From positions 199,532 to 263,531 of the forward strand of contig JAAOMT010000591.1 in assembly GCA_016748015.1 (NCBI GenBank): a stretch of DNA of 64,000 nt, in the 5' to 3' direction. Positions within the stretch are counted from its first letter, which is position 1; each line of letters begins with the position of its first letter. Positions 1 to 48,867 of the stretch are shown piece by piece. Made by a program: the position numbers and the translations under genes. The notes beneath the pieces were generated by a model. That model ran no database searches, was not told the origin of the DNA, and saw only the letters and a program-made list of their open reading frames with translations. The stretch comes from Geosiphon pyriformis uo1 (lineage: Eukaryota > Fungi > Glomeromycota).

Positions 1-1079
1 AAATGGAGTAACCAAGGAAGATAGCTACCCAACTCCAAAAATCTAAAAACTTTTCAACACTTTTGGAAGGAAGAAATAGTTTTCAACTCTAGACTTAGAC
101 AGTGGTTACTGACAAGTGGCCATGAAACCAGAAAACAAAGAGAAAATGGCTTTTATAACTTGAAAAAGAAATTTTGAATTTGAAGTTATGCCATTTGGTT
201 TGATGAATGCTTCTGTCATCTTTTAATGGCTTATGGAAATCATTTATACTAGACTGCTATGGAATCAGTAGTTGTATATCTGGATAATACCAATGTGTTC
301 TCTAAGACATTCAATGATCATTTATATCATTTCCAGCAAGTATTTAAAAGACTAAAAAGAGCTGAATTAAAATTGAATGCAACTAAATGTTTCTTTAGAA
401 AAACCAAACTCAAGTTTTTGGAACATGTTGTGAGCAAAGACAGTATTAAAATGAATTCAGACAAGATTGAGGTAGTTAAGAACTTTTCAGTACCAACCAA
501 CTTAACCAAACTAAGAGCATTCCTGGGATTTGCTGAATACTACTACCACTTTATCAAAGACTTTTCTAAACTGGCTCAGCCATTACACTAGCTTCAATCA
601 AAGAACACCAAATATAAATGAATAGAAAACCAGCAAGAAGCATTCAACATATTAAAAAGAAAGTTTATTCAAGCTCTAATGTTAATGTATTCAGATTACA
701 GCAAATCATTCATTATCACCACCAATGCATCAGGCCAAGTATTGGGAGCAGTACTATTACAGAGAGGACTAGATAGAAGAGAACATCCAGTAGCATATGC
801 CAGCCAAAGTTTGAGTCCAGCAGAAAAGAACTATAGAACACCAGTATTAAAACACTTAGCAATCTACTAGGCAGTTATGAAATGAAAAAAATACTTAAGC
901 CAGAAATTTGACATATATATTGATCACAAAAGATTGACATCAATTCAGAAACAAGAATTTAAAGATAATTGTCATGCTAGATAGAAAATAGAACTGTCAC
1001 TATTTAATTATACAGTACATTACAAAAAAAGAAAAAAAATGGAAATGCCAATGGCTTGTTATGAATGACACAAATCTAA
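1..1079 (+). pseudogene. E1 RT-RNase H end of ORF1
   Basis: ORF fragments 259-591 and 679-870; stop TAA 1077-1079 just after the NADGLSR-like motif. Confidence 0.9.
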
Positions 1080-1109
1080 AAACATTTCAACCCAAAAATA
1101 TAACAAAAA

Positions 1110-2492
1110 ATAAATATACAAAAATACCAACAACTCTAATATTACATAAATATCCAATTGTTCAAGGAGAAATTATCTCAAAAAGAACAAAATAACATAA
1201 AACAACAATTAAAATATTTTATTAACCATCAAAATATACTTTACCAAAAGAACAAAAGAAATTCAGATCAACTAACCAGAGTAATTACAGAACCAGAGAA
1301 AGAGACAATATTATTCAACATGTACTCAAATCCAACAGCAGAACATTTTCACAAAGAAGCAACCATGAAAAAAATCAGAAAAAGATACTATTAGCCATCT
1401 ATGTATCCAAACATCATTCAATATGTTCAAAATTGTGATGCTTGTCAAAAAAAAAAAGGAACAAAGCTAAGTGAGCTATTAAAACCAATCAAAGTGGGAC
1501 AACCATTTGATTACATTGAAATTAACTTAGTCAGACCATTGACAATAACCAGTAGAGGAAACAGATATATTGTAGTAGCCATGAACTATCTTACAAAATG
1601 GCCAGAAGCAAAAGCCATTCAAAGAACAGATGCAAAATCTGTTGCCAAATTTATTTATTAAGATTTGATCTGTTAATACAGATGTCCAAAAAAGCTATTA
1701 TTAGACCAAAAAACTTACTTTGTAAACAAAACATTGGCAGAATTAAGTCAAATATTTGGAATCAAAAGACCATTATTGTTACCATACCATCCACAAACAA
1801 ATGGGTTAGTCAAAAGGTTTAACAGAACATTGTATAAAGCAATTGCCAAAATTAGCCAAAAAAATCAAGACGAATGGAATTTGTTCATACCATTAGTATT
1901 ATTTGCTTATCAAACAATAAAACAAGACACTACACAAACAACATCATTTGAATTGGTATATGGCAGAACAGCAACACTACCAGTTGAGATAGAAGTCAAA
2001 ACATATTCAACAAAACCAATAACAGAAGAAAATTTCCAAAGAATATTGTTAAGAAGAATATATGACTTAATAGAAACACTAGAAAACAAATAGCAAAGAG
2101 CAGTTGGTAACATCCAAAAGTTACAAGAAAAACAAAAGAAAAAACATAATAACCAATTACCAGATAAACCAGTTGAATTCAGGATTGGAGACAAAGTACT
2201 TTTACATTGTACCAAAGCAAAAAAACAATGGAGTGGAAAATTTAATCCCAAATGGAACAGACCATTTCACATAGAAAAAATTCTAGGAAATGGAACTTAT
2301 AAATTAAGATGGGACAATAAAATCTTAGCTAAAGCAGCACATAGTGATTAACTAAAACCATATTACTATATAGTATTACCATTCAACAATAATATTCCAC
2401 AATTGGGAGTACAGAGAAAATTAGTCCAACCAGATGAGATTTCACGAGATCTAGAAACAATTATTGTTATCAACACAAATACATCAAATTAA
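1110..2492 (+). pseudogene. E1 integrase (zinc-binding, rve core, GPY/F-type C-terminus, no chromodomain seen)
   Basis: ORF fragments 1158-1394, 1401-1661, 1734-2093; KWxxPF..LGNGTYKL; ends TAA 2490-2492. Confidence 0.9.
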
Positions 2493-2515: not shown

Positions 2516-3175
2516 ATGGTAGATGCAACAAAAAATATCAAAAAAATGGAAATTACTGATGACATTCACTCATTAGCACAACAACTCTTTCAGTTAATTC
2601 AACAACAGAATATAGAAATTACTATCAACCAAAAAATCATTCGATACAAAAATACTAGAAAGATACACAAATACAAAATACAGAAAAAACCAGAAAACAC
2701 CATCGACAAAATAATTCTGAAAGTAAAATTAGCAATAGAAAAACCAACAAGTATTACCACATATCAAGAATTAACCAAAGAAACTTAGAAGTGATGAATA
2801 CAAGAATTTTTAAAGAACTTTTGTTATTTTCACTTGGGATAATATTTGAATATCCAAAATTTATATATAAATAAGACAAAGTGATTATTCAATCCAGAAA
2901 TATTACAATAACTTGAACAATTTGTGAGGAAAAACAATCTAACTACACAAGTATGAGCCATTTATTGATTACAAGTTGGATTTCAAGACTGACCAAAAAT
3001 ATTACACAATTCAGCAATGGACTCTATTACCATTAACCAAATGGGAAAAATAACTAATGTCCAATTTGAAAAATTACAAAACAAGATAACACAAGTAATT
3101 TTTGAAAAAGAAGTTCAAGAAATACTTAAAGACAGAGAATTAGAATTAGGAGATCTCGACAGAACTCAATATTAA
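2516..3175 (+). pseudogene. E1 ORF3, 220-codon accessory protein of unknown function
   Basis: ATG 2516 to TAA 3175 in one frame, broken only by nonsense codons; homologous to 6398-7057 and 47202-47921. Confidence 0.8.
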
Positions 3176-5514: not shown

Positions 5515-6384
5515 TGTTACAGGTGACTATTTCTGGTGTTAGATTAAATAACAAACTTATAACTTGGTGCTCAAATCTAGTTGTAGTTGATAGTGATCTA
5601 AAGGTTTGTGTCTAAAAGGTTTGTATCCAAAGGGTTTGGTTGAGTTCTTTGTATAATGAACAGAGATTCAATGGTAATAGTTTTATCCATAGTTTTTTGA
5701 AACCACAGTTTCATCAATTTTTTTCTCAGCTTGATGGCCAGTATTCCTCCTGGTAAGCTATCTTCAATCGAGTGTTCTACCCTTATTTCTGGGTCTTTTA
5801 CCAGTCATGTTTATCCTGATATCAGTACCCCGCATGTTAATCCTCAATAGAGTTAGTAAACAACAATAAAATCAAAGCAAGAAATAAAAAAAAATAAATA
5901 AATAAAGAAAGAAAAAAAATAAGCCAAGGCGATTTGCAAGTTAGTATTCCATCAATAGCTGTGATCAAGAGCTATTGTTCCAGTGTGGTTAAGTATTGAT
6001 TATTATCAACATGAAGTGTTGATAGTGGCAGCAAGTTTGAGATAACAAACAGTTATTTATTTATGGTTTGGAAAGTTGTTCAGATGAAATCTAAACTGAG
6101 AGGTCTGTTTTTTTAGCTTCTAATCTTACTGCTATATATACATAATTGAGATTCCTCAATTTCTCAATTCTTCACAACAGGAATCTTGGGATTTCTGGAA
6201 TCCTGCAATTCCTTTAAAAGGAATCTTGAAATTCTGGAATCCTGCAATTCTTTGTGAGAATCCTGTAATTCCTAGAATCCTGCAATTCCTGAGAGGAATC
6301 CTGGAATTCCACATTTTACTACGTCTACTTCTGATTGGTTAATAACTATGCTAATATATATTCTCTATATTTTTATGAGTAACA
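5515..6384 (-). repeat. E2 3' LTR
   Basis: TGTTAC...GTAACA; about 93% identical to 14842-15712 by hand alignment; PPT adjacent at 6385-6399. Confidence 0.97.
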
Positions 6385-6397
6385 TTATTCTCTCCTT

Positions 6398-7057
6398 TTA
6401 ATATTGAGCTCCATCAAAATCTAACTCTGTTAATTCTCTTTCTTGAAGTATTTCCTGAATTTCATTTTTGAGAATTACTTGTGTTATTTAAGTCTGTAAT
6501 TCTTCAAATTGAGTATTGGTGATCTTTCCTAATTGATTATTGGTAACCATATCCATTGCTTTGTTGAGTAAGATTTCTGGTTGATCTTAAAATGCTGTGT
6601 GTATTTGGTATATGGCTCGGGTCTGTGTGGATAAGTTGTTTTTTCCCAAAAAATGTTCTAATTGTTGTAGTATTCTTGTGTTGAATAATCACTTTGTTTT
6701 ATCTGTATATAAATTCTGGATATTTACGTGTTGTCCCAAGTAAAAATAACAATAATTTCTTGGAAATTGTTGTATCCACCAATTCCAAGTTTTTTTAGTC
6801 AACTCTTGATATAGTAACTCTTTTGTCAACTCTTTTATTGCTAATTTTACTTTCATAATGATTTTGTCAATGGTATTTTCTGTTTTCTTCTGTGTTCTAT
6901 GTGATGATGTCTTTCTAGTGTCTTGATATCAGATGGTTTGTTGATTAATTGTAATTTCCATCTCTTGGTGTTGAATCAATTGAAAGAGTTGTTGTGCTAG
7001 TAAGTGGATGTTGTCTGTAATTTCCATTTTTCTGATATTTTTTGTTATGTCTACCAT
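6398..7057 (-). pseudogene. E2 ORF3, 220 codons, unknown function
   Basis: MVDITK..MEITDNIHLLAQQLFQLIQ ... YFxLG ... DFDGAQY*; same length as the E1 copy. Confidence 0.8.
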
Positions 7058-7081
7058 GTCTTTATATATTCTTTTGATGAA

Positions 7082-8463
7082 TTAATTTAACGTGTTGTTG
7101 TCAATAATGATGATTGGTTTCAGATCTTGTGGAATCTCCTCTGGTTGGACTAGTATCTTCTGTATTCTTAATTGTGGAATATTACTGGTGGATGATGGTG
7201 TGATATTGTGGTATGGTTTCAGTCAATTTTCATGTGCTGCTTTGGTTAAAATTTTGTTATCCAGTCTTAATTTGTAAGCTCTATTCCCTAGAATTTCTTC
7301 TATGTGAAATGGTCCATCCTATTTGAGGTCAAATTTTCCACTCCATTGTTTTTCTGCTTTAGTACAATGTAAAAGTACTTTGTCTTCAATCTTGAATTCA
7401 ACTGGTTTGTCTGGTAGTTGATTATTATGTCTTTTTTCTGTTTCTTTTGTGACTTTTGTATATTATCAGCTGCTCTTCTTCGTTTGTTTTCCAATGTTTC
7501 TATTAAGTCATATGTTCTTCTTAACAATGTTTCTTGGAAATTTTCTTCTGTTATTGGTTTAGTTGGATATGTGTTAACCTCTATCTTAACTGGTAATATT
7601 GTTGTTCTACCATATATTAATTCAAATGATGTTGCTTGTGTGGTGTTTTGCTTCATTGTCTGATAAGCAAATAATACTAATGGTATGAACAAATCTCATT
7701 TGTCCTGGTTTTCTTGGCTGAGTTTTGCTATTGTTTCATACAATGTTCTATTAAATCTTTTAACTAATCCATTGGTTTGTGGATGATATGGTGATGATAG
7801 TGGTCTCTTAATTCCGAATCTTCAGCTTAGTTCTGCTAATGTTCTATTCACAAAATAGGTTCTTTGGTCTGATAATAGTTCTTTTGGACATTCATATCGA
7901 CAAATCAAATTTTGATGGACAAATTTGGCAACAGATTCTGCATCCGCTCTTTGAATTGCTTTGGTTTCTGGCCATTTAGTAAGATAGTTCATGGCTACTG
8001 CAATATATCTGTTGCCTCTGCTGGTAATTGTCAATGGTCCAACTAAATCAATTCCAATACAGTCAAATAGTTGTCTCACTTTAATTGGTCTTAATGGTTT
8101 GCTGGGTCTTGTTCCTTCTCTTCTTTGACAAGCATTACAATTTTGCACATATTGAATGATATCTGGATACATTAATGGCCAATAGTATCTCTTTCTGGTT
8201 CTTTCCATGGTTGCTTCTTTATGAAAATGTCCTGCAATTGGATTTAAGTACATGTTGAACAGTATTGTCTCCTTTTCTGGTTCTGTAATTACTTTGGTTG
8301 GTTGATCTGAATTTTTTCTATTTTTCTGATAAAGTATATTTTGGTAAATGATAAAATATTTGGATTGTTGTTTAATTCTCTTTTGTTCTAGTTGAGATAA
8401 TTTCTCCTTGAACTGTTGAGTATCTATATAATGTTGAAGTTATTGATATTTTTGTGTGTTCAT
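7082..8463 (-). pseudogene. E2 integrase ORF with its own ATG (MNTQKYQ)
   Basis: GHF..CNAC, GIDLVGPL, SDQ, YHPQTNGLV; ORF fragments 7822-8253 and 7300-7692. Confidence 0.9.
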
Positions 8464-8524: not shown

Positions 8525-11500
8525 TTAAATTTGTCTCATTTGCGACAAACTGTCGGCATTTTTGTTGTCTTTTCTCTTTTTATAATTTATAGTATAAGTA
8601 TATGTCGAAAGAGCCATTTTCTATCTTGACTGTTTTCTGTCTTCAAATTCTTGTTTTTGGAGTAATGTCAATCCTTTGTGATCTGTGTACACCTCAAACT
8701 TTTGGCTCAAGTATTCTTTCCATTTCATAACTGCCCAATAGATTGCTAGATGTTCTAATTCTGGTGTTCCATAGTTCTTTTTGGCTGGAGTCAAACCTCG
8801 GCTGGCATATGTAACTAGATGTTCTCTTTCATCCAATCTTCTCTGAGATAGTAGTGCTCCCAATACTTGACCTGATGCATTAATGGTAATAATGAATGGT
8901 TTACTATAATCTGAATAGATCAATACTAAAACTTGAATAAGCTTTTTTTTTAAGATGTCAAATGCTTCTTGCTGGGTTTCAGTCCATTCATACTTTGCAT
9001 TTTTGGTTTGAAGATTATTGAGTGGTTGTGCTATCTTTGAAAAGTTCTTTATGAAGTGTTTATAATAGCTCACAAATTCCAAAAATGATTTCAGCTCAGT
9101 TATATTGGTTGGTATTGGAAAGTTTTTTACTATTTCTATTTTCTCCAGATTTGTTTTTATGCGGTCTTTGCTAACTATATATTCCAAGAATTTTAATTCT
9201 GTTTTGCCAAAAAAACATTTTGTTGCATTTAATTTTAATCCTGCTCATCATAGTCTTTCGAACACTTGTTGGAAATGACGTAGATGATCATCAAATGTTT
9301 TTGAAAACACATTGGTGTCATTCAAGTATACAACTACTGATTTCCACAATAAGCTGGTATACACAATTTCTATTAACCATTGGAATGTAGCTGGAGCATT
9401 AATTAAGCCAAATGGCATAACTTCAAACTCAAAGTTTTCCTTTCTTGTGGTGAATGCTGTTTTTTCTTTGTTGGCTGGATCCATAGTTATTTGCCAGTAC
9501 CCACTATCCAAGTTTAATGTTGAGAACCATTTGTTTCCACTAAAAGCATTAAATAGTTTTTGTATCTGTAGAGTTAGATAGCTGTTTCCATGAGTTACAC
9601 CATTGAGTTTTTTGTAGTCTACACAAAATTGGATTTTTCTATTCTTCTTACAGACAAGTACTACTGGTAATGACCATGGGCTCATTGATGACTGAATTAA
9701 TCCATTGTTAAGCATTTGGTTGATCTTTTGACGGATAATTTCATGGCTGGCTGGTAGTATCCTATATGCTTGCTGTTTGATTGGCATTACATTTCCAGTC
9801 TTAATCTGATGCTAGATAATATCAGTTCTGCCAAATTTGTTTTCACTGGCAAAGATGTCATTGAAATTATTAAGTAACATCTTTAGTTGCATCTATTGAA
9901 GTGGGTCTAGATTTCTCATGTTCATCTGTTTCAATTGTTTTGGCTGTAACAGATAACATTCATTTCGTCTATAGATGGTTTGTAATGTAATATCCACATA
10001 TTCACAAAGCTGTGAAAAATCTGGAATGCTGCTTGGTGCTTGATTTTCAATTTCCGTGGTTAAATATTCGAAAGTAGTTCCTTTCAGTATCTCTACAATA
10101 TTTCCGGTGTTGTTGTAGATGGGAATTTTGATATGGTTATGGCTTTTGGCTGGTATGTGTAGATTGATAAGTCCAATTTCTCTTGATTCACAAAGGGTTG
10201 CTTCTGCTTCAAAAATCTGTTCTTGCTTCTTCTCTCTCCTTTCTATTGCTAACATGTATTGGCTATATGGTGGAATGGAAATTGTTTGACCAGTTGAAAT
10301 AATTTCTCCTTGGCCAATAATTTTTTCCTCCACCATATTGACTGGTACCTCTATTCTACCCATTGATCCAAATCTCTGTATCCCTTTTGCTGTTATCCCT
10401 AATTCTTTCCTATTTCCCACTAAAACTAACTGAGCTATTTTCACCAGAGACAGGAATATTGCCTGTGCTATCCTTTTATTTGGCTTTATAACATAGGCTT
10501 TTTCTGAGTCATTTTGTAGCATAGCAATAATATTTCCTACATATCCTGCATTAATTATTTCTCCTCTGATGTTTATTCTCTTTTTCGCTAAACTACTCCT
10601 AGATGCTAATTGAACCATTATTGTTGCTAGAATTTTCAGTGCTATTTTCAGATCAATGCAAGTGCACAAATGGGGTTCCAATTTGATGGTATTTTTTTCT
10701 AGATATCTTAGATCAAATTCTGCATTAGTATTATGCACATGTTCTGGCATGATACCTTCATTATTATTACTGAATCATTTTAGTTCTTGCTCCTTGGTGA
10801 GGTCAGGGAGTGTAATATATTGTTTGTAGTTTGAATTGGAGTTTGAATCTGAGTTGGAATCATTGTCATTGTTATAGCCATTTTGAATGGAGCTGGAACC
10901 ATTATTTTTGTTATCATTATTGTCAGAGTTTGAATTGGGGTTGAAACTCAATTCCAATTCTGATGCACAGCTGTTAATTGGTTTTTTTTCTTCGGGGATC
11001 ATGTAAATCATGCATGGTAGTAAATTGTAGATGAGGTCACAATCATCACAGAATTAGAAGTCACATAGAATCAAACAGTAGTCACATAATCAGGTGTTGA
11101 TTTCTTCTAAGTGTTGCTCTTGCTCTTCTCTTGTGAGTGCTAAATTCTGATAATGTATGGAATTCTTCTGGGCTGTTTTCTAAGTCGATAAAGGCATCTG
11201 GGTTGAGAACCAAAACAATGTCTGTTGGTTCTGGAGGGTTATTCTTGATCTCCAGAATTTCACTGAGTGAAATGCCTTCTACTTTGGCATTGGCCATTCG
11301 CCAGATCTCGTCCTCGTCATGTGGATAGCCATCTAGGTGGGATATAGCTCAGTGCTATGCTGCTGTAATGGGTGTACCACAACTCACCTAGTCACTGATG
11401 AAGATTATGTATTGGCATGAAGCGTCGCATGTTTCTCCTTGACCAGGAATGTTGTTCCACATTTCTTCACTGAGTAATTATTCACCACAAGCGAGACATG

Positions 11501-14500
11501 ATTTATTGTCCTACTTGTCTTGTCTTTTTGGGTAGTCATATTATTCCCTATGGCAGGGCTTGCAATAGTAATGGGTTTGTGTTCAGTAGTCTTCGTCTAG
11601 TACTACCCAAGCTCCCATTGAGAACAGTTTCTTCCCACAGTCTTTGCATTTGAGAGGTATATATGGCAGCTCTTTTATTGGTTCACATGAGTATTCTCTT
11701 TCCCAGCCATTAGTTATTTCTCCTGCAGTGGTGGTTTCTTCAGGTATGTTTTTTTCCCCTTTTTCCTTGCTCTTTTCTTTCCAATCTAGAATTGGTGGCA
11801 TTTTGCTTTGGTTGTTGTCAGTCCAAGTGTCAATGGTGGCTTCCCAAGTAGGTTCTTCTTTTTGTTTTTCCTTTCTATTGTTGTTGTTGTCCTAAGCAAA
11901 TATTGGTGGCAGTTCATTGTAGTCAATGTTAGCCCATAAGACTTGGTATGCTTCCTAAGTGGGTTTCACTTTTTCTTCTTCGAATTTGATAAGTGGTGTT
12001 GATAGGGTGGTGATGGGCTTGAAGTGGCCACACATGGCTGGTACCCATGTGTGTCGACCGTTCTGGCTAAGCTGGAACTCTTGGGTGTTCCAATCTAGGA
12101 TTGTATTGGTTTTGGACAGCCAGTTATTTCTAATGAGTGCTTGGTATTGAATGGCTTCCATAATAAATACTTTGATTGGTACTATGATGCCATTGACTTT
12201 TATGGGGAAATCATCAATCTCTCCAATGGGTGTTTTGGTCACTCCATCAGCTGTAATAATCCTGGTGCTGGCAGCGCGATTAACTTAGTGACCTAATTAA
12301 TCTATGAATTGTCTTGTGATAATGCTGCCAGCTGATCCACTATCTAGGATCAGTTTGATAGAGTGACTATTAACTTTCACATTAGTGTACATTACAGTAA
12401 TGGGTTTTTTCTCAAGTGCTGCTCCACTGAACAATGGTGGGTTGATGGTTTCTTTTAATTCGAAAGGAAAGATGGTGGTGAGAGTTTTGTTTTCAGTAAC
12501 TGTTGCTGATGGAATGTTGCTGGTGAGTGGTGGTTGTTGGTTGTTTTCTGGATGATTGGATTGGGCATCTTCTGGAGTCACCAGGAGACTTAAATAGTTC
12601 TGGGTGTAACTGGTGCCCAAATTCTGAGATCACAACCCTAATGGTGGGGTTGATGAGCTGGAGATCAGTTGATGGACAACCATTGCTGATCTCCAGTTTT
12701 GGGCGACTCTTGATCTGGGGTTTCCTGATGTCATCTAAGTGGAGTTTGGTAGTGGTGTTTGTATTGCAGTTGGTTGATATATTATTTGTGGCTGTGGCTG
12801 ATACATTGTTTATGGCTGTGGTTGATAGACTGGAGTTTAATATATTGGCAGTTGATATATCAGCTGTTGCGTCATTGGTGGATAAGAATATTGACTTTGA
12901 TTTTGTTGATATCTCAGAGTTCGAAACTGGCGATCGGGGTTTCTATATTGATTTCCTGATTGTTGGTTATTTAAATGGGTACGGCAGTCGATTTGTAGGT
13001 GTCTTTGTCTTCCACAATAGTAGCATGTATGCATTTCTTGTTGCCACTGTTAATTGGTTAATAAGAATGAACACAACTAATTCTGGAAACAATTGGCGTT
13101 TTCCTGATTATTGTGTTATTTTGGAGGTTGATAAATTGCCTGATTGTTAACTAAGTATCCCTCAATTTTCTGATTGATGGAATCACTAATTTGCTTTAAT
13201 TTGGAACCCAAATCAGATGATCCATTCATCACTAGATTTACAGCTTGGGCGTGATTGGTTTCTAGCTCAGCTGCTTCAAAATCTCTAGCTTGGGTGACTG
13301 CAGTAGGGAGGTCAACTGGATGCATTGGGCATACTTATTGGAGGATGCTGCTACATAACCCTCTGATAAACTGGTTCAAGATCTGTGGTGCCATAAAATA
13401 ATCAGCTTGGATTGTCTGAATTTGGTGCAGATTTCTATGAAAGTGTTCTAAGTAAGTGGTGACTGCTTCTGTGTCCCCTTGTTTAATGGTAGTGAAGATG
13501 TTGGTCAAGTAATTAATACTGTTATTATTACTAAAATATCTTACAAACTCTGTTTTGAAATTATTGAAGGTTTGGGGTTTGGCAACTAGACTCTAATACC
13601 ACGAGTCGGCAGTATCTTTGAGAAAGTATGGAACAGCTTGTATTGTCCTGGCATCATTTCATCCATTGGCTGCAATGGCTTTTTCGATGTTGTTGAGCCA
13701 GACTTGGGTGTCATCTTCTTTGCCAGTAAAATTGTCGATTTTGGCGATTGGAGCATAGGCCATTGGATCTAAGTTTAGTTGCTGTTGTTGGATGAATGGC
13801 TGAAATGATTGTTGTGGCTGGTAATTTGGCTGCTAGGGTGGTTGTAAATTTTGCTAATTTGGCAGCTGAATTGGTTAGAGCAATTGTTGTAGTGGCAGTC
13901 CAATGGGTTCAATTGGTGGGTGATCAATAACAATATTCGGAGATAAGTTTGGATTAATTACTCCAGAGTTTTGATTGTCTTGATTTAGCAGTGTTCTAAT
14001 ATTTGGAGTTTTGATTTCGGGGTTTTCTTGATTTGGATTTTTCAGAGTTTAATCATTTGAGATTTCAAATTCTGGGTTTTCAGGAATCGGGTTTTGGTAA
14101 GTAAACTCTTGATCTTCAGATTTTTCTTCTTCCTCTTCTTCTGATTCTGTTACTTCCCACAGATCAGAAATTCCAAAATCTGGGGAAGACAGTGGTGATC
14201 AGAGTCCTGATGGCATTGATAATCGTGAGTTAAATCCTTCAAAATACATGCCATATGATTCTAATAATTCTGCTTTCCTTTGTTTACTTTGGAATGGGAA
14301 TCGTCCAAATGCTGATGTCATGTTTGATGTGGATGCGCTGGTAAATGTAATATTAATAGTGCTTCCAAGTGTATAGTGATATAATAGATTAGTTGGGAAC
14401 TCAACTCTTGTTTTCTTCCAAGTAGGTGGTTGTATTCTTTTGGATGTTACTGCTGGTGTTTGCAGTTTTTCTTTGCCTTTGCTTGTGTAAGTAATGGGAT

Positions 14501-14820
14501 ATCTTTACTATGTATGGTGTTCAATTTTTTTGTTGATTTCTATGATAATAAAGGCGAAATTGTGATTTGTTGGCAGGTTGGTATTTTGAATTAATTTACT
14601 GTAAAAAGCTTTTCTTGCCAATTCGATATTTATTAGTGTTCCTAACAGATAGACAATTCTTTTGTTGATGTAGAAATTGAAAGCTGATTCTGCTGATATG
14701 TGGTTGTGATTTAATCCCAATGTTGACAGTAGTGTTAAAATAAAGATTTTGCGAATCCTAAATAGTTTGCTCTTATGTTTTCTGATTCTGCCACTTTTAG
14801 ATTTATTCTCTATAGGATTA
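8525..14820 (-). pseudogene. E2 ORF1: gag-CCHC-aspartic protease-Cys-rich domain-dUTPase-RT-RNase H
   Basis: CYYCGRQRHLQIDC knuckle (~13000), LILDSGSAGSII (~12340), CKDC cluster (~11640), dUTPase, RT 9248-9787, RH 8621-9187; start position approximate. Confidence 0.9.
10357..10750 (-). pseudogene. dut: dUTPase domain within E2 ORF1
   Basis: Trimeric dUTPase motifs 1-5 recognisable: AEFDL, SRSSLA, IINAGYVGNI, RIAQAI, KGIQRFGSMG. Confidence 0.9.
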
Positions 14821-14823
14821 TAC

Positions 14824-14841
14824 CTTACAGGGAGCACCAAA
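14824..14841 (-). promoter_or_regulatory. E2 primer-binding site TTTGGTGCTCCCTGTAAG
   Basis: Directly follows the 5' LTR; complementary to a tRNA ending ...GGAGCACCA (candidates are elongator Met or Ile-UAU; identity is inferred). Confidence 0.85.
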
Positions 14842-15712
14842 TGTTACAGGTGACTATTTCTGGTGTTGGATTAAATAACAAACCCATAACTTGGTGCTCA
14901 AATCTAGTTGCAGTTGATAGTGATCTAAAGGTTTGTGTCTGAAAGGTTTGTATCCAAAGGGTTTGGTTGAGTTCTTTGTATAATGAACAGAGATTTAATG
15001 GTAATAGTTTTATCCATAGCTTCCTGAAACCACAGTTTCGTCAATTTTTTTCTCAGCTTGATGGCTGGTATTCCTCCTGGTAAGCTATCTTCAATCGAGT
15101 GTTCTATCTTTATTTCTGGGTCTTTTACCAGTCATGTTTATCCTGACGTCAGTACTCCGTGTGTTAATCTTCAATAGAGTTAGTAAACAACAATAAAATT
15201 AAAGCAAAAAATAAAGAAAAATAAAGAAAATAAAGAAAGAAAAAAAATAAGCCAAGGCGATTTGCAAGTTAGTATTCCATCAATAGCTGTGATCAAGAGC
15301 TATTGTTCCAATGTGGTTAAGTATTGATTACTATCAACATGAAGTGTTAATAGTGGCAGCAGGTTTGAGATAACAAACAGTTATTTATTTGTGGTTTGGA
15401 AAGTTGTCCAGATGAAATTTAAACTGAGAGGTCTGTCTTTTTAGCTTCTAATTCTACTGTTATATATACATAATTGAGATTCCTCAATTTTTTAATTCTT
15501 CACAACAGGAATCCTGGAATTTCTGGAATCCTGCAATTCTTTTGAGAGGAATTCTGGAATTCTGGAATTCTGTGATTCTTTGTGAGAATCCTGTAATTCC
15601 TGGAATCCTGTAATTTCTGAGAGGAATCCTAGAATTCCATATTTTACTATGTTTACTTCTGATTAGTTAATAATTATGCTAATATATATTCCTTATATTT
15701 CTATGAGTAACA
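14842..15712 (-). repeat. E2 5' LTR
   Basis: Direct repeat of 5515-6384; flanked by the PBS and TSD. Confidence 0.97.
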
Positions 15713-29726: not shown

Positions 29727-30723
29727 CCAGTTACTAAATAAACCAGTCAAATTTAAGATTGAAAACAAAATACTCTTATATTATACTAAAATAAAAAACC
29801 AATAAAGTGGAAAATTTGACCCCAAATAAAACAGACCATTTTACATTAAAGAAATTTTAAGAAATAAAACTTATGAATTAAAATAGAACAACAAAATTTT
29901 AGCTAAAACAATACATAGAAATTAACTGAAATTATATTATAATATAGCATTATTATTTATTAGTAATATTTTACAATTGAGAATACAATAAATACTAATT
30001 CAACCAAATAAAATTCCATGAAATTTGAAACCAATCATAATTATTAACATGAACATGTCAACTTAATTTATTAAAACAGAATATAAAGAACTAATATACA
30101 CAACAAAGACAACTAAAAAATGAAAATTACAGACAATATCCACTTTTTAGTCCAACAATTATTTTAATTTATCAAACATCAAAAATTAAGCATAAAAATT
30201 ACCAAAACTTCAATAAAAAATACACATAAGACTGAAAAACATAGTAGATACTATAATAACAAAAATAAAGTTGTCAATAAAAACACTAAAGACAATAATA
30301 TTATATAGAAAATTAATGAAAAAAAAAATTGAAAACAATAAATACAACAATTTCCAAAAAACTTTTGCTATTATCACTTGGAACAAAAACTCTATATTTA
30401 GAACTTATATAGATAAAACAAGGTAAATATTTAATACAACAATATTACAACAAATAAAACAATTTATAGAAAAGAACAATCTACCTACATAAACATAAAC
30501 AATATACAAATTACAAGCAAAATTTTAAAACTGTCTGGAAATACTGTTATACTTAATTATAAATACAATAATCATTAATTAATTGGAAAAAATCACAAAT
30601 ACCCAACTCAAAAAATTACAGACCAAAATTGTTCAAGTAATCTTTAAAAAAAAATTATAGAGCTAATTCAAAAAGAAGATTTAGGAGATCTTAATAAAAC
30701 TTAATATTAAAAGGAAAAAATAA

Positions 30724-33714: not shown

Positions 33715-35909
33715 ATGCCTCGCGAACTTATAACGATTCAAACCGGCCAATGTGGCAACCAGAGTAAATGATAAATGAAATTCTTTTCAGTAAATTTTGG
33801 TCCATTCTTAGCTGCATGCTCTTTTACAGTCGGAATGGAGTTTTGGGCGCAACTTTGTGCTGAGCATGGAATAAGTCAGGATGGGATACTTGAAGACTTT
33901 GCGACTGAAGGTGGTGATCGAAAGGACGTATTTTTTTATCAGGTAGGTTTCCTTGACTTCTGGTGATTTCACTCACCAAAAGACCATCCTTTCCAGCTTA
34001 TGTTACCTCTATAGGCTGATGACGAGCATTATATACCAAGGGCACTTTTACTAGATTTGGAACCTCGTGTATGTTTAATTCTTATATTCTATAATTTAAT
34101 TCTCACAGTATTTGATAGTCACACACATTCATATCTCTTACCTCTTTCCCATCCGTAGGTCATTAATAATATTTTAACGTCGAAATATGCAAATCTCTAT
34201 AATCCAGAAAATATTTATTTATCCAAAGATGGTGGTGGTGCTGGTAACATTTGGGCTTATGGGTTTTCCCAAGCCGAAAAAGTATGTGAAGACATATTTG
34301 AAATGATCGATCGCGAAGCAGATGGCAGTGATTCTTTAGAGGTATTGGAATTTCTATGGTTTTGTATTTGGCAACGTTAATTTTCATGTCATTTATTAAC
34401 GATAAAACAAACTTTTTTCAAAGGGATTCATGCTTCTTCATTCGATCGCAGGTGGAACAGGATCCGGAATGGGATCTTTCTTATTGGAGCGATTGAACGA
34501 GCGATATCCTAAGAAGTTGATTCAGACTTATTCGGTGTTTCCGAATAACGATGAGGTCTCTGATGTTGTTGTACAGCCCTACAATAGCATCCTGACATTA
34601 CGGCGATTGACTAATAATGCAGACTGTGTGGTAAGATAGTAGCCAGTATTTTCAAGGGATTATCAAGAAATTTTAATCTCATTTATAAGTTTGAATAACT
34701 CTTTGAATAGATTGTACTGGATAATGCAGCTTTGACGCGTATTGCGAGTGATAGGCTACATATCCAAAATCCCACTTTCGCTCAGACAAATCAGCTGGTA
34801 ATTCTATCAAAACGTGTCCCAACAGATCTTTTTCATTCAGCATCTTATATCATTAGTGTATCGAAAGGTTTCGACAGTCATGTCTGCGAGCACAACAACG
34901 CTCCGCTATCCTGGCTATATGAACAACGATCTTGTGGGTATGATCGCCTCATTAATTCCAACCCCAAAGTGTCATTATTTGATGACTGCCTATACCCCAT
35001 TTACGAGTGATCAAGTTGAGAAGGTGGGCAATTGAATGAGCTAGAGTTTTTCAAAGGCGTTCTTTTAATTTAGTTATTTCAAATATCTATTTAGGCCAAA
35101 TCAGTTCGCAAAACAACCGTGTTGGACGTGATGCGGAGATTATTACAACCCAAAAATAAGATGGTCTCAACCAATCCATCGAAAAAAAGTTGTTATATAT
35201 CCGTATTAAATATAATTCAGGGAGAAGCTGACCCGACGGATGTGAGCTTTTCTATTGCTCCCAATTATCTTCATGTCTTTTCCCATGATATATTCCAAAT
35301 CCGTGCTCTTTTCAGGTACACAAATCATTGCTGCGAATTCGCGAGCGACGTCTTGCACAATTTATTCCTTGGGGCCCGGCCAGCATTCAAGTAGCTTTGA
35401 CTAAAAAATCCCCATATGTTCAAACCTCTCATCGCGTTAGCGGTCTAATGTTGGCGAACCACACAAGCATTACTTCAGTGAGCCTTCATTCTTTTGATTA
35501 TTGGTATTAAAGAATCACAGACGTTATATGTCGAACATTTCCAACATTTCGCAATAGCTCTTGAAGCGAACCTGCGATCATTATGATCGTTTCAGAAAAC
35601 GCGGGGCATTTTTGGAGCAATATAAAAAAGAAGATATGTTTGCGAATAACTTGGAAGAATTCGATATTGCAAGGCATGCAACAATGCTTATGGCACATTA
35701 CTATTTGATCAAAATTACATCATTAATTAGTTTGCATAATGTTTTTAGGGAAACGGTGCAAGATTTGATTAATGAGTATGAAGCCTGTGAAAGTCCGGAT
35801 TATATTAATTACGTAAGTTACATTTCATATGCATTCTTCCTTATCACCATTTCACCAGAAACAATTGATATTTGATATTTCTCAGGGAATCCCGAAGGAT
35901 CAAAATTAA
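33715..35909 (+). CDS. TUBG1: Gamma-tubulin, 12 exons, 453 aa: 33715-33763, 33830-33942, 34015-34068, 34159-34341, 34424-34630, 34711-34797, 34868-35023, 35095-35241, 35316-35477, 35558-35673, 35749-35812, 35886-35909
   Basis: [18 protein letters not shown], gamma-specific [64 protein letters not shown]; the hand-spliced frame is open; 10 GT-AG introns and 1 GC-AG; last exon least certain. Confidence 0.97.
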
Positions 35910-39853: not shown

Positions 39854-39984
39854 TTCAAATTATAGGAGATAATTTGAAGATAAATTCAGTTATTGGAGGT
39901 TCAACTACTTCTAGAAAACGTAAATTTGCAACCAACAGGCAGTTACAACATTCAAGAAAAGAGACCAAAAACCTCCGGTAACAT

Positions 39985-42900
39985 TTGGTGCTCTCCCATG
40001 GAAATAACACAGCAACAACAAAATTCAAAGTGGTGACCACACCAGATGCAACAATTTTAGAGTATTACCAATCAATTTACACACACTGCAAGCAAAGATT
40101 CAACATTCCAAACAGAATTGAAGTTGTCAAGAAATCAGTATACCAATACATTAAAAACTGCATCAACAATTATCTTTTTGGAAATTACAATATCTCAGAA
40201 GTTAGAAACAACCTTTACAATAATTTAGCACACTATTCATGGTTGGAAACTGAAGACCTTAACAGCGAAACACTTGCCACTTACTTTCATAAACTTAATT
40301 TTAACATTATTAAATACTGTGAAAAAACATATCCAGTGCAGTCTCAATACTCTATTGATTTTGAATTGGAAACAGAAACAAGCAACAAAGGCAAAAACAA
40401 ATTGAAGCAATACTCAAAAACCACCCCAAATACTCCAACACTACCAAAAACAACTGCCAACTATTTACAAACACCTGAACAAGGAACCAGTTCAAAACTT
40501 CTACTTACTATCACACCTTTTCCAGCTTTACTTGTACAAACACAAATGCCTAATTCACCCTTGAATCAATTTGCAAGACCAGAAGATTTTACATCACTCA
40601 GAAGTCCCATCAGACAACAAGAACTTTTTCAAACTAGTTCCAATCTCCTTGACTTTCTAGCTGAAAATCAAAGTAAACACTCTGAGACAGCAGCAAATGA
40701 AGAAAATGAACCTGAAATATCTAAAGAAGAATCAATAGACAGTGAAAATAAAGAAGACGAAATGACAACATACATCACAAAAATTCTTGAATTTAATGGA
40801 GAAAACATTGAGACCAGTCCCCAAGAATGGCTCGACCAAGTTACTAAAGCTGGAGATGCAAATGGATGGAATGCTGCCAGAATGTTAAGAACAATTCCTT
40901 ACTTTCTCAAAGGAACAGCAGAAGAATGGTTTGAAAACTTGGCCACCCCATTCAATAATTGGAATGCTTTCAAAACAGCCTTCCTTAAACAGTTCACTGA
41001 CAATAATACCTCCATCACCTTTCACAATCATTTTCAAAATATCAAACAAGAACCCTCTGAATCTGTTATAACTTATATTGAGAAATTCAACAAAATTCTC
41101 AAACAAATTTGCCAACTCGAAACAAACAATTATTATTCCGATGCTCAAATCTTGGATCAATTTATCGCTGGTCTAAAAGATAAACTAATTAAAAAAGTTC
41201 ACCCACATGTGCCAGAAGATTTAAACTCTGCCATACAGTATGTGAAAAGATACAAAATGGCCATGGAAGAGGCCAATTGCACAAAACTTGTAAATTTGGC
41301 AATTGGAGAAACCAGTTTAGCAGCTGAGAAAAAAATTGACCAACTCATAAAGAAGGTTGAAAACTATTTCACCAATTAACAACAACAGCAACTCCAAAGA
41401 TATCAACCACCCCAAAGACGAAATCAAAATAACTTTGCACCACTTTCTAATAACCAGTCTTAGAATTGTCATTACTGTGGAATTTTTGGCCACTGGAAAA
41501 GAGATTGCAGAAAGCTACAACGAGACCAACAAAATAGGAGTAATCAACATTACCCTTTACCACAGTAATCTTATTATTAACTACCACCACCAGCTTACTA
41601 TCCACCAAGACCCCAATACCAAAATAACTATTATCAGCCTGCCCCACAGCCAATCCAACAGCAATACCAACAACCACCCACACAACATTATCAAGTACTT
41701 GCTCGAAGACTGATTACACAAAATCAATTCACACCACAAAACCAATACTAAGTAAACAACAATAAAATCAGTTTAAACAACCAATTGGTTCCCCGAAATT
41801 CCACTCAACTAAGACCCAACCACTACCACACTCAACCCAGTTATTTAACAATGCCAAAAGAACAGGATTTTCACTATACTGCACCCTTAGAAGATAGAGC
41901 TGTAACACAACAACAAAACTCTTTCTATACTCTCACTACAATCCCACCAGCCAGAATCACTGAAAATGCTAACCTTTCAGATATATTTTCTTTTGAGTTC
42001 AAAGCAAATAAGTCATCATTTCTGTTTAGCAATGGAACCGCCAATGAACAAAAAGCAATTACGGCTATGTACACTGAAGCAGAAGTCGAAGGAAAGATAA
42101 TTCACTTGATCCTAGACAGTGGATTTGCCGGAAGCATTATTACCTACTAGTTAATGCAACAGTTGAAGAAAAATGTCGACCGACCAGCTCAAACAGTAAT
42201 CGTCACTACTGATGGCATAAAAAAGACCCCAGTAGGAGAAATTGACAATTTTCTGTTCACTCTTGATGGAATCACCATTCCAGTCAAAGTTCTTGTAATA
42301 GATGCACCCCAGTACCAAGCTCTCATTGGAAATGATTGGCTTCAAAAAGCCAATGCTAATCTGAATTGGGAAACACAAGAGTTAACAATCTCCTACCAAG
42401 GACAACATGCCCAGATACCTGTCATTTGTGGTACATTCAACAAATGTTCTGAAAAAGCCCTGGCTTTTGAATTCGAACCGAAAGAAGAAAAACCTCTCAT
42501 TGAAACATTCATGGCTCTTAGATCAACGTCCAACTGGGCCAATAAAACAGAACAAGAACATTTTACCTCACACTCTGAACCCAAAACCTCTGGATGGAAT
42601 ATCCCTTACTTAAAACCCGAACCAAGGAAACAATGCCCCTATATTCTTCTTAAATGTAAGGACTGCCACAAAAAACTATCATCAATGGGAGCCTGCATTT
42701 CACCTGAAGAAGAATATGAGAATCATACTTGTTATTACTGCAAGACTTGCTACAGAGAATGATGGGGCCATCTAATAAAAAGAAGCGGAAAATGGGATAA
42801 CACCCCTTGTTTGACTTGTGGAAATATGCTACTGGAAGAATGTAATTGGATTAATGTAGCTATGAAAGGAGGAGTCTGTGATCAGACCTGCCAATATGCT

Positions 42901-45648
42901 TTATCAATTTCAGAAAAAGTAAAAAGAGAAACACCCTTTAATGCAGCATACAACAGTGCTCTCAACAAACTTTATCACTACCTCCATGATGTCGAGATGA
43001 TTTTCAACCTAGCAATGGCATTAATTAATGGAGCTACCAAAGAAAATGTTTGTCAAATGAAGGAAGCAGAATACATTGAATACATTATAGAATTAGCTGG
43101 ATTTGATTATGAAGACGAAGTAGAAGTTTACCACCAAATTGCAATTCACACCTACCCAATCCAAGAAGCTCAAATTTAACAATTAGAGCAAATAAACATT
43201 AGGCTATGTGAAGAATGCATTATGTCTTGTGATGAACAGTGGTGTCCTGAATGCTACACTCTTAGTATCCCCTTGCCCAGCAAAAATGATGAGAACAAAA
43301 TTGAATTTGGAGAACTTGAAGCAACAAAAAAAATTGAAACAACACCCATCTACCTTATCAAAAATCAGCCTGCCTTACAACTTAAATACTTCAACAACAA
43401 CAGACAAGGAATAAAATCCGAAAAAGCACATGAAATTGATGCTGGATATGACCTAAAATATTCAGGCAAGGATACTCTTGTTCTCAAACCCAAATCTCTC
43501 ACAAAAATCAACCTCAAAATTGCACTCAAAATCCTGCCAGGAGCAATAGTTCAAATCACCTCCCAGTCCTCTCTGGTAAGCAAAAGAATTAATGTCAGAG
43601 GAGGAATAATTGATGCTGGATATACTGGAGACATTACAGTGATGCTTCAAAATGAAACTGACAAACCATTCAAGATTGAACATGCTGAAAAAATTGCCCA
43701 AGCTATTTACCTACCCCTAATCAACATTTCGGGTTTGCAACTAATCAATAAAAAAAAACAATTAGGAAAAAGTAATAGAGGAACCCAAGGTTTTGGTTTA
43801 ACTGGACGATTCACAGTTCCAGTTAATATAGCTCTTAATACACAGAACAAATCCCACCAGATTCTCAGACTTCCATAACCAATTACCATCTTACCCTTTG
43901 AAGAACATTTGGAAATCTACATCTGCCCAAAGCCAACAATCACACAACAAATTTTTGAGTCCAATGAACAAGTCTGCTTGGAACATAATATTTCAATCCC
44001 AAACATTTATATTCCAGAAGGAACAAAGAAAGTCCGAGTTACTTTTTACAACTCCAATAATTACCCCATAATTTTATTAAATAATTTAGAAATTGGAGTT
44101 ATTCACAGTAATATATTTCAACAAAAATTACCCCAAACAGTTCCCAATTTCTCTGAAATTATTGGACATTCACTACCAAAAATCAACCCAAACCCCAGCT
44201 CCGAAAACTACCATGTTGTCATAAAAAAACTATCTCGAATCAACATGGGACAACTTGAATTACAACAACAGACTCAGCTCAAAGAGCTAATTGCAGAATT
44301 TGCTGATATCTTTGCTAAAAACAACAATGACTTAGGAAGAACCAATTTGGTCTAATACCAAATTTATACAGGAGATGCCAAACCAAAAAGACAACAAGCA
44401 TATTGAGTTGCTCCAGAAAGCCACCAATTCATCTGAGAAGAAGTACAACAAATGCTTAACAATGAGTTCATCCAATCCTCCATGAGTCTTTGGGCTTCAT
44501 CTGTAGTGCTAGTTAAAAAGAAAAATGGAAAGATCTAATTTTGTGTTGACTATCAACAACTCAACAGTGTTACAATTGAAGATGCCTACTCCTTTCCCCA
44601 GATTGATGACATGTTAGATGCCCTTGGGAAATCCAAATACTTTTCAACACTAGATTTAAAAAGCAGTTACTGGCAAATTGCTATGGATCCCAAAGATTGC
44701 CCCAAAACAGTATTCATCACCTAAGACAGAAATTACGAGTTCAATGTAATGTCTTTTGGATTATGCAATGCACCAGCAATATTTCAGAGATTAATGGATG
44801 TTGTGTACCAAGGACTTCTTTGGAAATCAGTAGTCGTTTATCTTGACAATACTAATGTTTATTCTCCATCATTCGAATTACACTTAAAACACCTGCGAGA
44901 AGTTTTTCAATGATTATGAAAAGCAGGACTAAAACTCAACATCGAAAAATGCTATTTTGGAAAAACAAGCTTGGCTTTTCTTGGGCATATTGTTAGTAAA
45001 GATGGAATCAAACCAGACCCTGGAAAAATCAGTGTTGTCAAAAACTTCAAAACTTCTCGAAACACTACAGAACTAAGAGGATTCATAGGATTAGCATCTT
45101 ACTATCGGAAGTTTATTAAAAGATTCTCGAAAATTGCAAAACCCCTCAACCAGCTCACCACCAAAAACGTTGAATACAAATGGACTACCAAACACCAAAA
45201 AGCTTTTGAAATTCTCAAAGAAAAACTAACAACAGCTCCAATCCTCACCTACCCGGATTTCAGCAACCGATTCCAATTAGCAACAGATGCCTCTTATACT
45301 GCCTTTGGTGCTATCCTATCACAATTGAATGACAATAGAAATGAGCGAGTAATTGCCTATGCCAGCAGAACATTAAAACCAGCTGAAAAGAATTATTCTG
45401 CCACAGAACTAGAAACAGCAGCCATAATTTGGGCCCTACATTACTTCAACCTTTATCTTAGGCCTAAAGAATTCAATATTATTACTGATAATATTGGACT
45501 CAAATGGCTTCAGAACAAAAATACTCAGCTGAATGCAAAACAAATCTGATGGACAGGATTTCTAGCAAACTATCAATACATAGTACATCACAAACCAGGA
45601 AAACTCCACACCAATGTTGACTGTCTCTCCAGAATGAAACAAGATTAG
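39985..45648 (+). pseudogene. E5 ORF1: gag-CCHC-protease-Cys-rich domain-dUTPase-RT-RNase H in one frame
   Basis: ORF pieces starting 39985, 41785, 42154, 42811, 43222, 43909 and 44971 share one frame; CHYCGIFGHWKRDC, LILDSG, VVVYLDN, LATDAS; true start codon not identified. Confidence 0.93.
43425..43806 (+). pseudogene. dut: dUTPase domain within E5 ORF1
   Basis: DAGYDL, SQSSL (from SRSSL), GGIIDAGYTGDI, KIAQAI, RGTQGFGLTG. Confidence 0.95.
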
Positions 45649-45699
45649 AAAACACAAAAACCAACACTCAACTTAACCAACCAAAAGAGCCAACAAACA

Positions 45700-47201: not shown

Positions 47202-47921
47202 ATGACTATTCCTCAAAACATTTAACAATTATCCCAAAAATTAATGTTAGCTTTAAAAACAATATTCGAATTATCCATTACTGTTACTGGAAACCACATT
47301 AATTATACCTAAACAGAAGTAGTTACAAATTTAGCCCCAAATTCATGAAAATATCACCCATATAAGAAGAACACAAAAAGTTATTCTGGAATTCACCTGC
47401 CAGAACTTTTAAAGCTTGCTTTAAGAGAAAATTTAATGCTCACTCCAATTAGTATTCTACCAAATGCTACAATTCAACAAAGACTTCAACTGTGTTTCAA
47501 TGAAGAAAACACTGAATATCCTCCAATCTATAGATATTTCCACATTGGAAAAACACTCTACAAATAAAAACTGGAACTTACAACAGCAAACCTCACAAAA
47601 GAAGCTATTCAGAAACAACTCCACAATGAATTCAAGACAACAGCTGGACCAACAAACAGTTGCTACAAGCTCAGAGCTGCTTTTAGACTTTATAACCTAT
47701 TCCACACCTGTGAAAATGTCCTACAAAACCCAATTTTACGACCTTTGAAGATTCAATACATTGAAAAGTTCACAGAACTGAAATTTCAACAATTTTCAGA
47801 CCAAATTTCTTCAATAATTGTGGATTACTATCTGGAAATTACAGACAGTACTTGGACTTTGATGGAGCTCAGTTTTGAGGAGAAGGTTATGTTACCAGAC
47901 AAAATTAGAGATATTATTTAG
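47202..47921 (+). pseudogene. E5 ORF3, divergent homologue of the family-A ORF3
   Basis: MTIPQNI.QLSQKLM ... YRYFHIGKTL ... AAFRLYNLF ... KFTELKFQQFSDQI aligns by eye with family-A ORF3; C-terminal frame uncertain. Confidence 0.7.
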
Positions 47922-48867
47922 CATGAAATTATCTTATAAATCTTATCATTAATTAGCATATATTATCATTTCAAATTATCACTTATTACATTAGCAAAAT
48001 GTCCGAAATTATCATTTAATTAATAACCCAATTTGTACACAACACAAATGTAACCTAATTGCAATGATCAAATCATGCAATACTCCAAACTATGTAACAT
48101 TCAAAAGTTCGCCGAAATTTGTAGAAATTCACCGAAATAATTGATAGTTCACCGAAATATCTAATAGTTCGCTGAAATAACTTGTAGTTCGCTGAAATGT
48201 ATCTTTAGTTCAGCGAAATTGTAGAAAATAGCAAAGTTCAAGTTCATAGAATAGTATTATGACAAGTTGTATAAAAGAAGAGCATCTCTCTTCAAGAAAA
48301 TGTATCTTACTTTAGATTTATCACTTAGAATCATTCTTACACCCACACAAAAAGAAATAAATATCAAATAATTCGAAAAACCAAATTCTTTAATTATTGT
48401 ACTTGGAAAATCCTCAAAAACCCAACTAATATTTTGAAATTGATTAGCTACCAATTTCAGTAAACTGTTAGTGACTCCAGGTCTAGATAGAAAACGTTTC
48501 TCTTAACAAAATTCTATTTCTTTTACATTTCTTTTATTTTTTTCTTTTCTTATTACAATCATTAGGGTAGTCTACAGACAAGATTCTTGTAGAAGAGTTG
48601 ACTTTCACAACAAAATAACTATACATTTTAGTGAGCTTCCAGACAAACAATTCCTGGGAAAGAGTTGATGTTTACTACAACGTAACTACATAAAGTAACT
48701 GGCGAAGAATTGGCCATTCCACTTATAAGCCCAGCAGTTCAAATTATAGGAGATAATTTGAAGATAAATTCAGTTATTAGAGGTTCAACTACTTTTAGAA
48801 AACATGAATTTGCAACCAACAGACAGTTACAACATTCAAAAAAAGAGACCAAAAACCTCCAGTAACA
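47890..48867 (+). repeat. E5 3' LTR (family B, ~978 bp)
   Basis: TGTTAC...GTAACA; follows the PPT; 20-bp tandem array 48104-48220; TATAAAA ~48270. Confidence 0.93.

Follow-up and report, generated by a model that had tools for sequence, protein, structure and literature searches.

A retained third open reading frame after pol in Ty3/gypsy LTR retrotransposons of Geosiphon pyriformis

Retroelements and ORF3 copies in the window

The window, as we call the whole 64,000-nucleotide stretch of Geosiphon pyriformis DNA that was analysed, was AT-rich and packed with decayed retroelements. Based on a Pfam search, these encoded gag, an aspartic protease, a dUTPase, reverse transcriptase (RT), RNase H (RH) and an integrase with an SH3-like tail. 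Their LTRs with TG..CA ends, primer-binding site (PBS), polypurine tract (PPT), target duplication and gag-PR-RT-RH-IN gene order identify them as Ty3/gypsy elements. One element on the reverse strand, E2, was complete, with 870-bp LTRs 93% identical to each other. It comprised a 5' LTR (14842..15712), a PBS (14832..14841), a decayed gag-protease-dUTPase-RT-RNase H region whose frame ended just past RNase H (8528..14831), a decayed integrase with H2C2, rve and SH3-like parts and its own ATG past the RNase H stop (7082..8463), a 24-nt spacer (7058..7081), the open reading frame under study, ORF3 (6398..7057), a PPT (6385..6397) and a 3' LTR (TGTTAC..GTAACA; 5515..6384) with a 4-bp target duplication matching the 5' flank. 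E1 and E4 belonged with E2 to family A, and E5, with its 3' LTR at 47890..48867 (+), represented family B.

Some further features of the two families were observed. Their PBSs start alike, and both carry a Cys-rich insert together with the dUTPase between protease and RT (42763-43600(+) and 10770-11900(-)). The gag frames of E2 (14832-14843(-)) and E5 (39982-39995(+)) open at the LTR end/PBS and contain no ATG for more than 100 codons, so that a non-AUG start or splicing is possible.

ORF3 was present in four of four integrase-bearing Ty3/gypsy elements of the window. The copies in E2 (6398..7057, reverse strand) and E1 (2516..3175, forward strand) each had 219 codons plus a stop, in agreement with the 220 codons given in the preliminary description, and could be aligned without gaps at 63% amino-acid identity. 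The E4 copy was a frameshifted relic at about 30117..30710 (+), as had been proposed, and the diverged homologue placed at 47202 in E5 had 239 codons plus a stop (47202..47921, forward strand) and homology to family A above chance. The distance from the integrase stop, put at about 25 nt in family A and about 120 nt in family B, was measured as 24 nt in E2, 23 nt in E1 and 117 nt in E5. The start shared with the other families was Met11 of family A, at 7027 in E2. Several details required correction. ORF3 had been said to run to the PPT, which was true of family A but not of family B, since the E5 frame reads through the PPT and 32 nt into the U3 of the LTR, and that of L001 (a related element described below) likewise continues into the LTR. 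A shared YFH(L/I)G motif was found as YFHLG in E1 and YFHIG in E5, but E2 has YFYLG, and the true form is Y-x-[YF]-x-[IL]-G.

None of the window copies was open, with four internal stops in E2, nine in E1 and four in E5. The E1 and E2 stops mostly face CAA, CGA or TGG in the partner copy, a pattern that C-to-T decay yields. Consistent with this, 59 of the 60 substitutions between the two E2 LTRs were transitions, indicating that the copies decay via C-to-T change. The contexts of these transitions (5515-6384 against 14842-15712) were CpT 25, CpA 21, CpC 9 and CpG 4; CpG is already depleted across the window (0.24), and the contexts fit broad C-to-T decay.

Conservation, selection and distribution of ORF3

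Similarity between the ORF3s of families A and B was detected within the window by tblastn (E 6e-7), and the alignment of the two families was significant (hhalign probability 84.4, E 7e-6, 184 columns), bearing out their proposed relationship. The family A HMM profile gave 15–23 bits on seven of seven B proteins. The family B profile gave −0.5 to 20.8 bits on 11 A proteins, three of which, truncated or gapped models, scored below 3 bits. In the null for these profiles, the maxima over about 1000 shuffles were 5.9 and 6.4 bits, and reversed sequences scored at most 0.9. Judged by sequence similarity, ORF3 of families A and B is homologous.

For E1 and E2, pN/pS was determined with transitions and transversions handled separately. 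The ORF3 ratio was 0.50 (95% CI 0.37–0.67) over 207 codons, similar in both halves, against 0.82 and 1.61 for the other sense frames and 0.88–1.22 for LTR frames; all of these ratios are driven towards 1 by post-insertion decay. Codon-level constraint within family A was likewise found with transversions only (0.49), as presumed when ORF3 was first described as a retained protein. One antisense frame gave 0.61, the expected shadow. The transversion ratios of pol (0.04–0.15) were below that of ORF3, and that of the integrase tail was 0.82. An estimate of 0.23 for the E1/E2 ratio, from uncorrected classes, was discarded, dS being inflated by transition bias. In family B, 33 differences counted in a selected subset (40 of 268 matches) were split 11/4/18 over codon positions 1/2/3 (p 0.012). 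ORF3 is thus under purifying selection, which is weaker than that on the enzymes; it is real and ancient, and its window copies are dead. Among E2, E5 and L001, identities were 50–63% for RT/RH, 51–63% for integrase and 22–33% for ORF3. The low identity of a retained protein suggests that ORF3 is old, kept and fast-evolving, as a host-facing regulator would be.

Searches beyond the window were used to determine how widely ORF3 is distributed, with copy numbers resting on annotated proteins and contigs. The E2 query returned 111 protein matches, all hypothetical proteins of G. pyriformis, and the E5 query 203, of which the best 120 were likewise all hypothetical proteins of this species. Among these 120 of 203 family-B gene models, 29 were of 235–245 aa and 40 of 221–225 aa, and uninterrupted family-B copies therefore exist. 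When 1.84 billion representatives were searched with a profile, 113 matches emerged, comprising 25 known Geosiphon proteins and 88 new ones; 26 of the latter were examined as sequences and 10 were traced, seven to Geosiphon and three to metagenome proteins. At least six Geosiphon subfamilies (the A, B1, B2, P0253, P0272 and P0321 types) and three metagenome types (P0266, P0262 and P0322) were distinguished, in a tree with long branches and unsure deep joins.

The element L001, which came from a different data set and was almost intact, had the same layout as the window elements, with a stop after RT-RH, a separate integrase and ORF3. The closest solved structure to its RT was that of Ty3 (best PDB match, E 6e-47). 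Its integrase had its own ATG and one premature stop and was followed by a 316-nt spacer and an intact ORF3 of 230 aa, which continues through the PPT into a TGTTAC LTR. In a further sequence, L002, the order was integrase tail, a further ORF, then ORF3. This extra ORF (L002:425-811) is of about 128 codons; a likeness to a gag N-terminus was considered and rejected (E 0.27).

No relatives were matched in phages and plasmids (tblastn with the P0119 protein), in viral contigs (search with the family A protein) or in a first metagenome scan, and a profile from alignment A7 gave a sole, stop-containing row at E 0.3 among 35 prokaryote genomes. No published description of this ORF3 family was found in the main texts of a mostly open-access literature, and the protein family appears to be undescribed. 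An abundant uncharacterised domain borne on repeats in Glomeromycotina may have a comparable pattern.

As a kind, extra ORFs after pol are already known, and what appears to be new is this protein family. Sense-strand additional ORFs between pol and the 3' LTR are termed aORF-3S, and in the cited part of Vicient and Casacuberta 2020 (PMC7264820) the examples given are env-like and in some cases contain membrane segments. ORF3 resembles them in position, orientation and presence in most copies, and is in addition constrained; it differs in being soluble, fungal and without a match in Pfam, PHROGs, NCBIfam or PDB. Functional third genes other than env occur in further Ty3/gypsy-like elements. 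The non-Env ORF3s of bdelloid Vesta/Juno-type LTR elements are esterases or exonucleases, with a dUTPase in some elements, according to the section cited (PMC5408684), and CERV of Cer1 is a spliced export factor in the extract used (PMC10309623). Geosiphon ORF3 has no conserved catalytic-type residues.

Properties and predicted structure of the ORF3 protein

The ORF3 proteins are about 210–240 aa long, compared with about 520 aa for the caulimovirus translational transactivator (TAV), and neutral to basic, with isoelectric points of 5.8–9.9. In a hydropathy scan, the top 19-residue value was 0.06–1.29 in 12 of 12 near-full-length proteins, confirming the absence of a membrane segment and giving no sign of a signal peptide; values of at least 1.6 were reached by one of the 120 listed B gene models and four of the 111 A models. 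The same 12 proteins had 0–3 Cys each, none of them conserved. Nothing above cut-off was found for ORF3 in Pfam, PHROGs or NCBIfam, and a profile search of PDB sequences gave no significant match. A candidate match to FtsQ (NCBIfam E 5e-4 but 19.5 bits against a cut-off of 366; PDB E about 0.5) vanished with wider profiles and was rejected. ORF3 is set apart from the integrase C-terminal domain by the integrase stop, a spacer of 23–316 nt (E1, E2, E5 and L001) and the lack of a Pfam match, in keeping with its original description as a separate gene.

An AlphaFold model was built from 66 alignment rows and had a mean pLDDT of 78.6, with residues 81–200 at 86–96 (about 90); an earlier model with a pLDDT of 45 was set aside. 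The predicted fold consists of an N-terminal helix and beta-hairpin, a disordered or flexible linker and a helical core (residues 80–205 of P0266). A Foldseek search of the model against PDB and viral structures gave nothing at E 0.001 or better. The VIA comparison of the whole model gave no Z of 5 or above, which does not show a new or different fold. Together with the selection and hydropathy results, the helical model upholds the view of ORF3 as a retained soluble, mostly helical accessory protein.

Over eight subfamily representatives, G108, R155, F160 and L167 were invariant and Y102 nearly so, while N145 was kept in seven and K143 in six. The best-kept elements were the turn 142–145 (highest, at 51% identity) and the helices 100–119 and 146–160, and the turn-plus-helix window held 3–5 Lys/Arg against 0–2 Asp/Glu in these eight representatives. 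No Asp, Glu, His or Cys was kept in at least eight of 10 representatives, which argues against an enzyme role. The helix-turn-helix order in the model, with a Gly/Lys/Thr/Asn turn and a basic helix following it, suggests nucleic-acid binding, although a role in binding RNA or protein would fit the same conservation pattern, and isoelectric points no more than neutral to basic count against DNA binding.

Several comparisons pointed weakly towards ParB-type helix-turn-helix domains. Pfam DUF1016_N (PF17761) was seen below threshold in four of 22 family-B proteins (E 0.037–0.12, residues 109–176), its best score of 14.6 bits missing the cut-off of 32.8, and HTH_ParB (PF17762) gave no Pfam row. 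Atlas rows, usable for the B protein but not the A protein, included DUF1016_N and DUF1016/HTH_ParB at 0.86–0.89 and were outranked by unnamed bacterial clusters at 0.91–0.94. The best 50 fold rows contained Spo0J (Z 3.9, rmsd 5.3, 93 aligned), the DNA-binding domains of KorB (Z 3.4, rmsd 5.2, 95 aligned) and ParB (Z 3.4, rmsd 3.1, 59 aligned) and a sigma-F fragment (Z 3.9, rmsd 2.4, 57/57 aligned), the ParB-type rows being tied with unrelated helical bundles, the top ones of which reached Z 4.7.

Against a 27-sequence ParB profile, the ORF3 core gave a probability of 0.13% and a score of 10.7, inside the column-shuffled null (maximum 14.7), and against a YhcG-N profile 1.8% over 15 columns only, whereas the positive control of YhcG-N against ParB gave 87.7%; the two profiles used for comparison covered a narrow range, with 27 and 70 sequences. 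The best local ORF3/ParB alignment covers the turn and the following helix. The helical core is of comparable size to those of ParB/Spo0J/KorB (PF17762) and DUF1016_N/YhcG-N (PF17761), but ORF3 adds the N-terminal helix-hairpin and lacks a nuclease or CTPase domain. The link to helix-turn-helix domains reached significance in none of these comparisons. ORF3 may work like a ParB-type domain but cannot be classed as one. It is doubtful that ORF3 is a highly diverged ParB/KorB-type helix-turn-helix of bacterial mobile-element ancestry that activates the repeats of its own LTR, or relieves their silencing, in a family-specific manner. If it were, it would be without precedent in fungi and would partly account for the spread of LTR elements over about 41% of the Geosiphon genome (41.2% in the portion of the source cited; PMC11952901).

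Cis motifs, expression and candidate functions

In each type of LTR, a TATA-like box was preceded by a repeated motif peculiar to that type, with nine and six copies in two A LTRs, six in B and four in L001. None was shared across families, and shuffled maxima were 1–2, for motifs derived from the very LTRs in which they were counted. In E2 the nine copies form an array in U3 directly upstream of the TATA-like box (6180..6306, reverse strand), and in E5 six 12-bp units with 20-bp spacing lie in U3 upstream of theirs (48107..48219, forward strand). Both arrays are candidate targets of ORF3; U3 repeats of this kind occur in many LTRs, where host factors may bind them.

Two other potential signals were found near ORF3. 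A 14-nt motif before the PPT of E2 (6405..6418, reverse strand) is identical in E5 (47858..47871, forward strand) and partly present in L001 (L001:3087-3095). As the reading frame across it differs between families A and B, it is likely to be a cis signal. The spacer between integrase and ORF3 in family A contains a TATA-like octamer, which lies about 40 nt ahead of the start that the families share, and the 316-nt spacer of L001 contains two partial copies of that element's own U3 motif, together hinting at an internal promoter for ORF3.

In each of E1, E2, E4, E5 and L001, a stop closes the pol frame 3–4 codons past the motif that ends RNase H, and a separate Met for integrase lies a few to about 20 codons beyond that stop (RNase H stop/integrase at 8528-8463(-), 1077-1130(+), 45646-45700(+) and L001:772-801). 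A conserved separate integrase of this kind would need read-through or reinitiation. The association between ORF3 and the split integrase, raised as a question in the preliminary description, held in five of five readable elements (E1, E2, E4, E5 and L001).

We tentatively favour a role for ORF3 as a DNA-binding activator or anti-silencer acting on the family-specific U3 repeat arrays of its own LTR. ORF3 would be the third gene of a dUTPase-bearing Ty3/gypsy LTR retrotransposon lineage in Geosiphon and related hosts, possibly made from the internal promoter or through reinitiation. Its helix-turn-helix-like core would bind the array in the LTR of its own family, with helix 126–141, turn 142–145 and helix 146–160 as the putative DNA contacts and the variable residues 146–154 perhaps setting family specificity, and this binding would lead to more transcription or less host silencing. 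There are partial parallels in plants. VANC proteins bind element-specific tandem repeats in VANDAL transposon anti-silencing, as set out in the part of PMC5735166 cited, and ORF3 may share their proposed logic of a fast-evolving element protein paired with family-specific tandem repeats; the likeness is one of description, and VANDALs are plant DNA transposons. The TRP28 ORFs of Retand, from plant gypsy elements, are also conserved non-Env ORFs after pol in elements with tandem repeats, and are proposed in the extract cited to bind DNA and regulate the element (PMC11963269), but they are antisense, whereas ORF3 is sense, fungal and without a Pfam match to the TRP28 domain.

Were ORF3 such a family-specific activator or anti-silencer, the VANC-type arms race would extend to fungal retroelements and ORF3 would provide a new DNA-binding module of small size. 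LTR retrotransposition is regarded as needing no more than Gag and Pol, and the job of an additional gene is known in few cases. In the present case, a single small gene has persisted in families with RTs of only 50–63% identity, alongside an unusual stand-alone integrase. Uninterrupted natural copies (the P0119 type and P0266) and the candidate target repeats make its function directly testable.

It is less probable, and on balance unlikely, that ORF3 acts at the RNA level, either by binding RNA or the ribosome for integrase translation in the manner of TAV or by exporting unspliced RNA in the manner of CERV or Rev. Because a stop separates pol from integrase in every one of the five readable elements, and integrase begins at a Met of its own, translation downstream needs a special route. 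In E1, E5 and L001, however, integrase shares its frame with the RNase H stop, so that read-through or cis reinitiation could suffice without a helper. Of the analogy with caulimovirus TAV drawn in the preliminary description, the position stood: in the section cited, TAV/P6 is likewise the last of several consecutive ORFs, placed after pol behind a 106-bp spacer and with its own promoter (PMC5902531). The resemblance did not extend further, as no Pfam or PDB row for TAV domains was obtained with ORF3 and no significant likeness to TAV or an RNA-binding family was found by sequence or fold. CERV provides a precedent, in the extract cited, for an export factor encoded by an LTR element (PMC10309623).

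Rather improbable is a role in which ORF3 targets or tethers the stand-alone integrase in place of a chromodomain. The E2 integrase tail gave a weak SH3-like match and no Pfam match to a chromodomain, and ORF3 and a separate integrase always occur together in the readable elements; this co-occurrence can be attributed to shared descent. ORF3 resembles no known targeting domain and diverges much faster than integrase. A protein with a structural accessory part in the particle, or one that suppresses host RNA interference or other defence through protein contacts, is similarly improbable. Fast evolution and a conserved hydrophobic core would suit such a protein, and small helical viral proteins appeared as very weak fold matches to the first, poor model (Z 3.4–4.5), but these were mostly gone with the better model, and the conserved Lys/Asn/Arg patch suits nucleic acid better.

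A degenerate Env or membrane protein, suggested by the sense orientation and env position, is largely refuted by the lack of a hydrophobic segment, of conserved Cys and of a match to fusion-protein families, together with the soluble helical model, in line with the initial view that no Env features are visible. A non-functional by-product of A-rich sequence or cis signals would account for the broken state of every window copy and for the last 14 nt before the PPT being conserved as DNA in differing frames, but is refuted for the lineage by sense-frame selection, the intact L001 ORF, protein homology down to 22% identity and the 29 B gene models of 235–245 aa.

Elsewhere in the window, 48836-52445(-) and 54169-59614(+) are two decayed copies of another repeat of endonuclease/RT/RNase H-like appearance, for which the Pfam search gave nothing above cut-off and which we take to be probably a LINE. 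A 105-codon ORF without a Pfam match at 35558-35875(+) lies in a GC-richer island amid very AT-rich stretches and is possibly a host exon.
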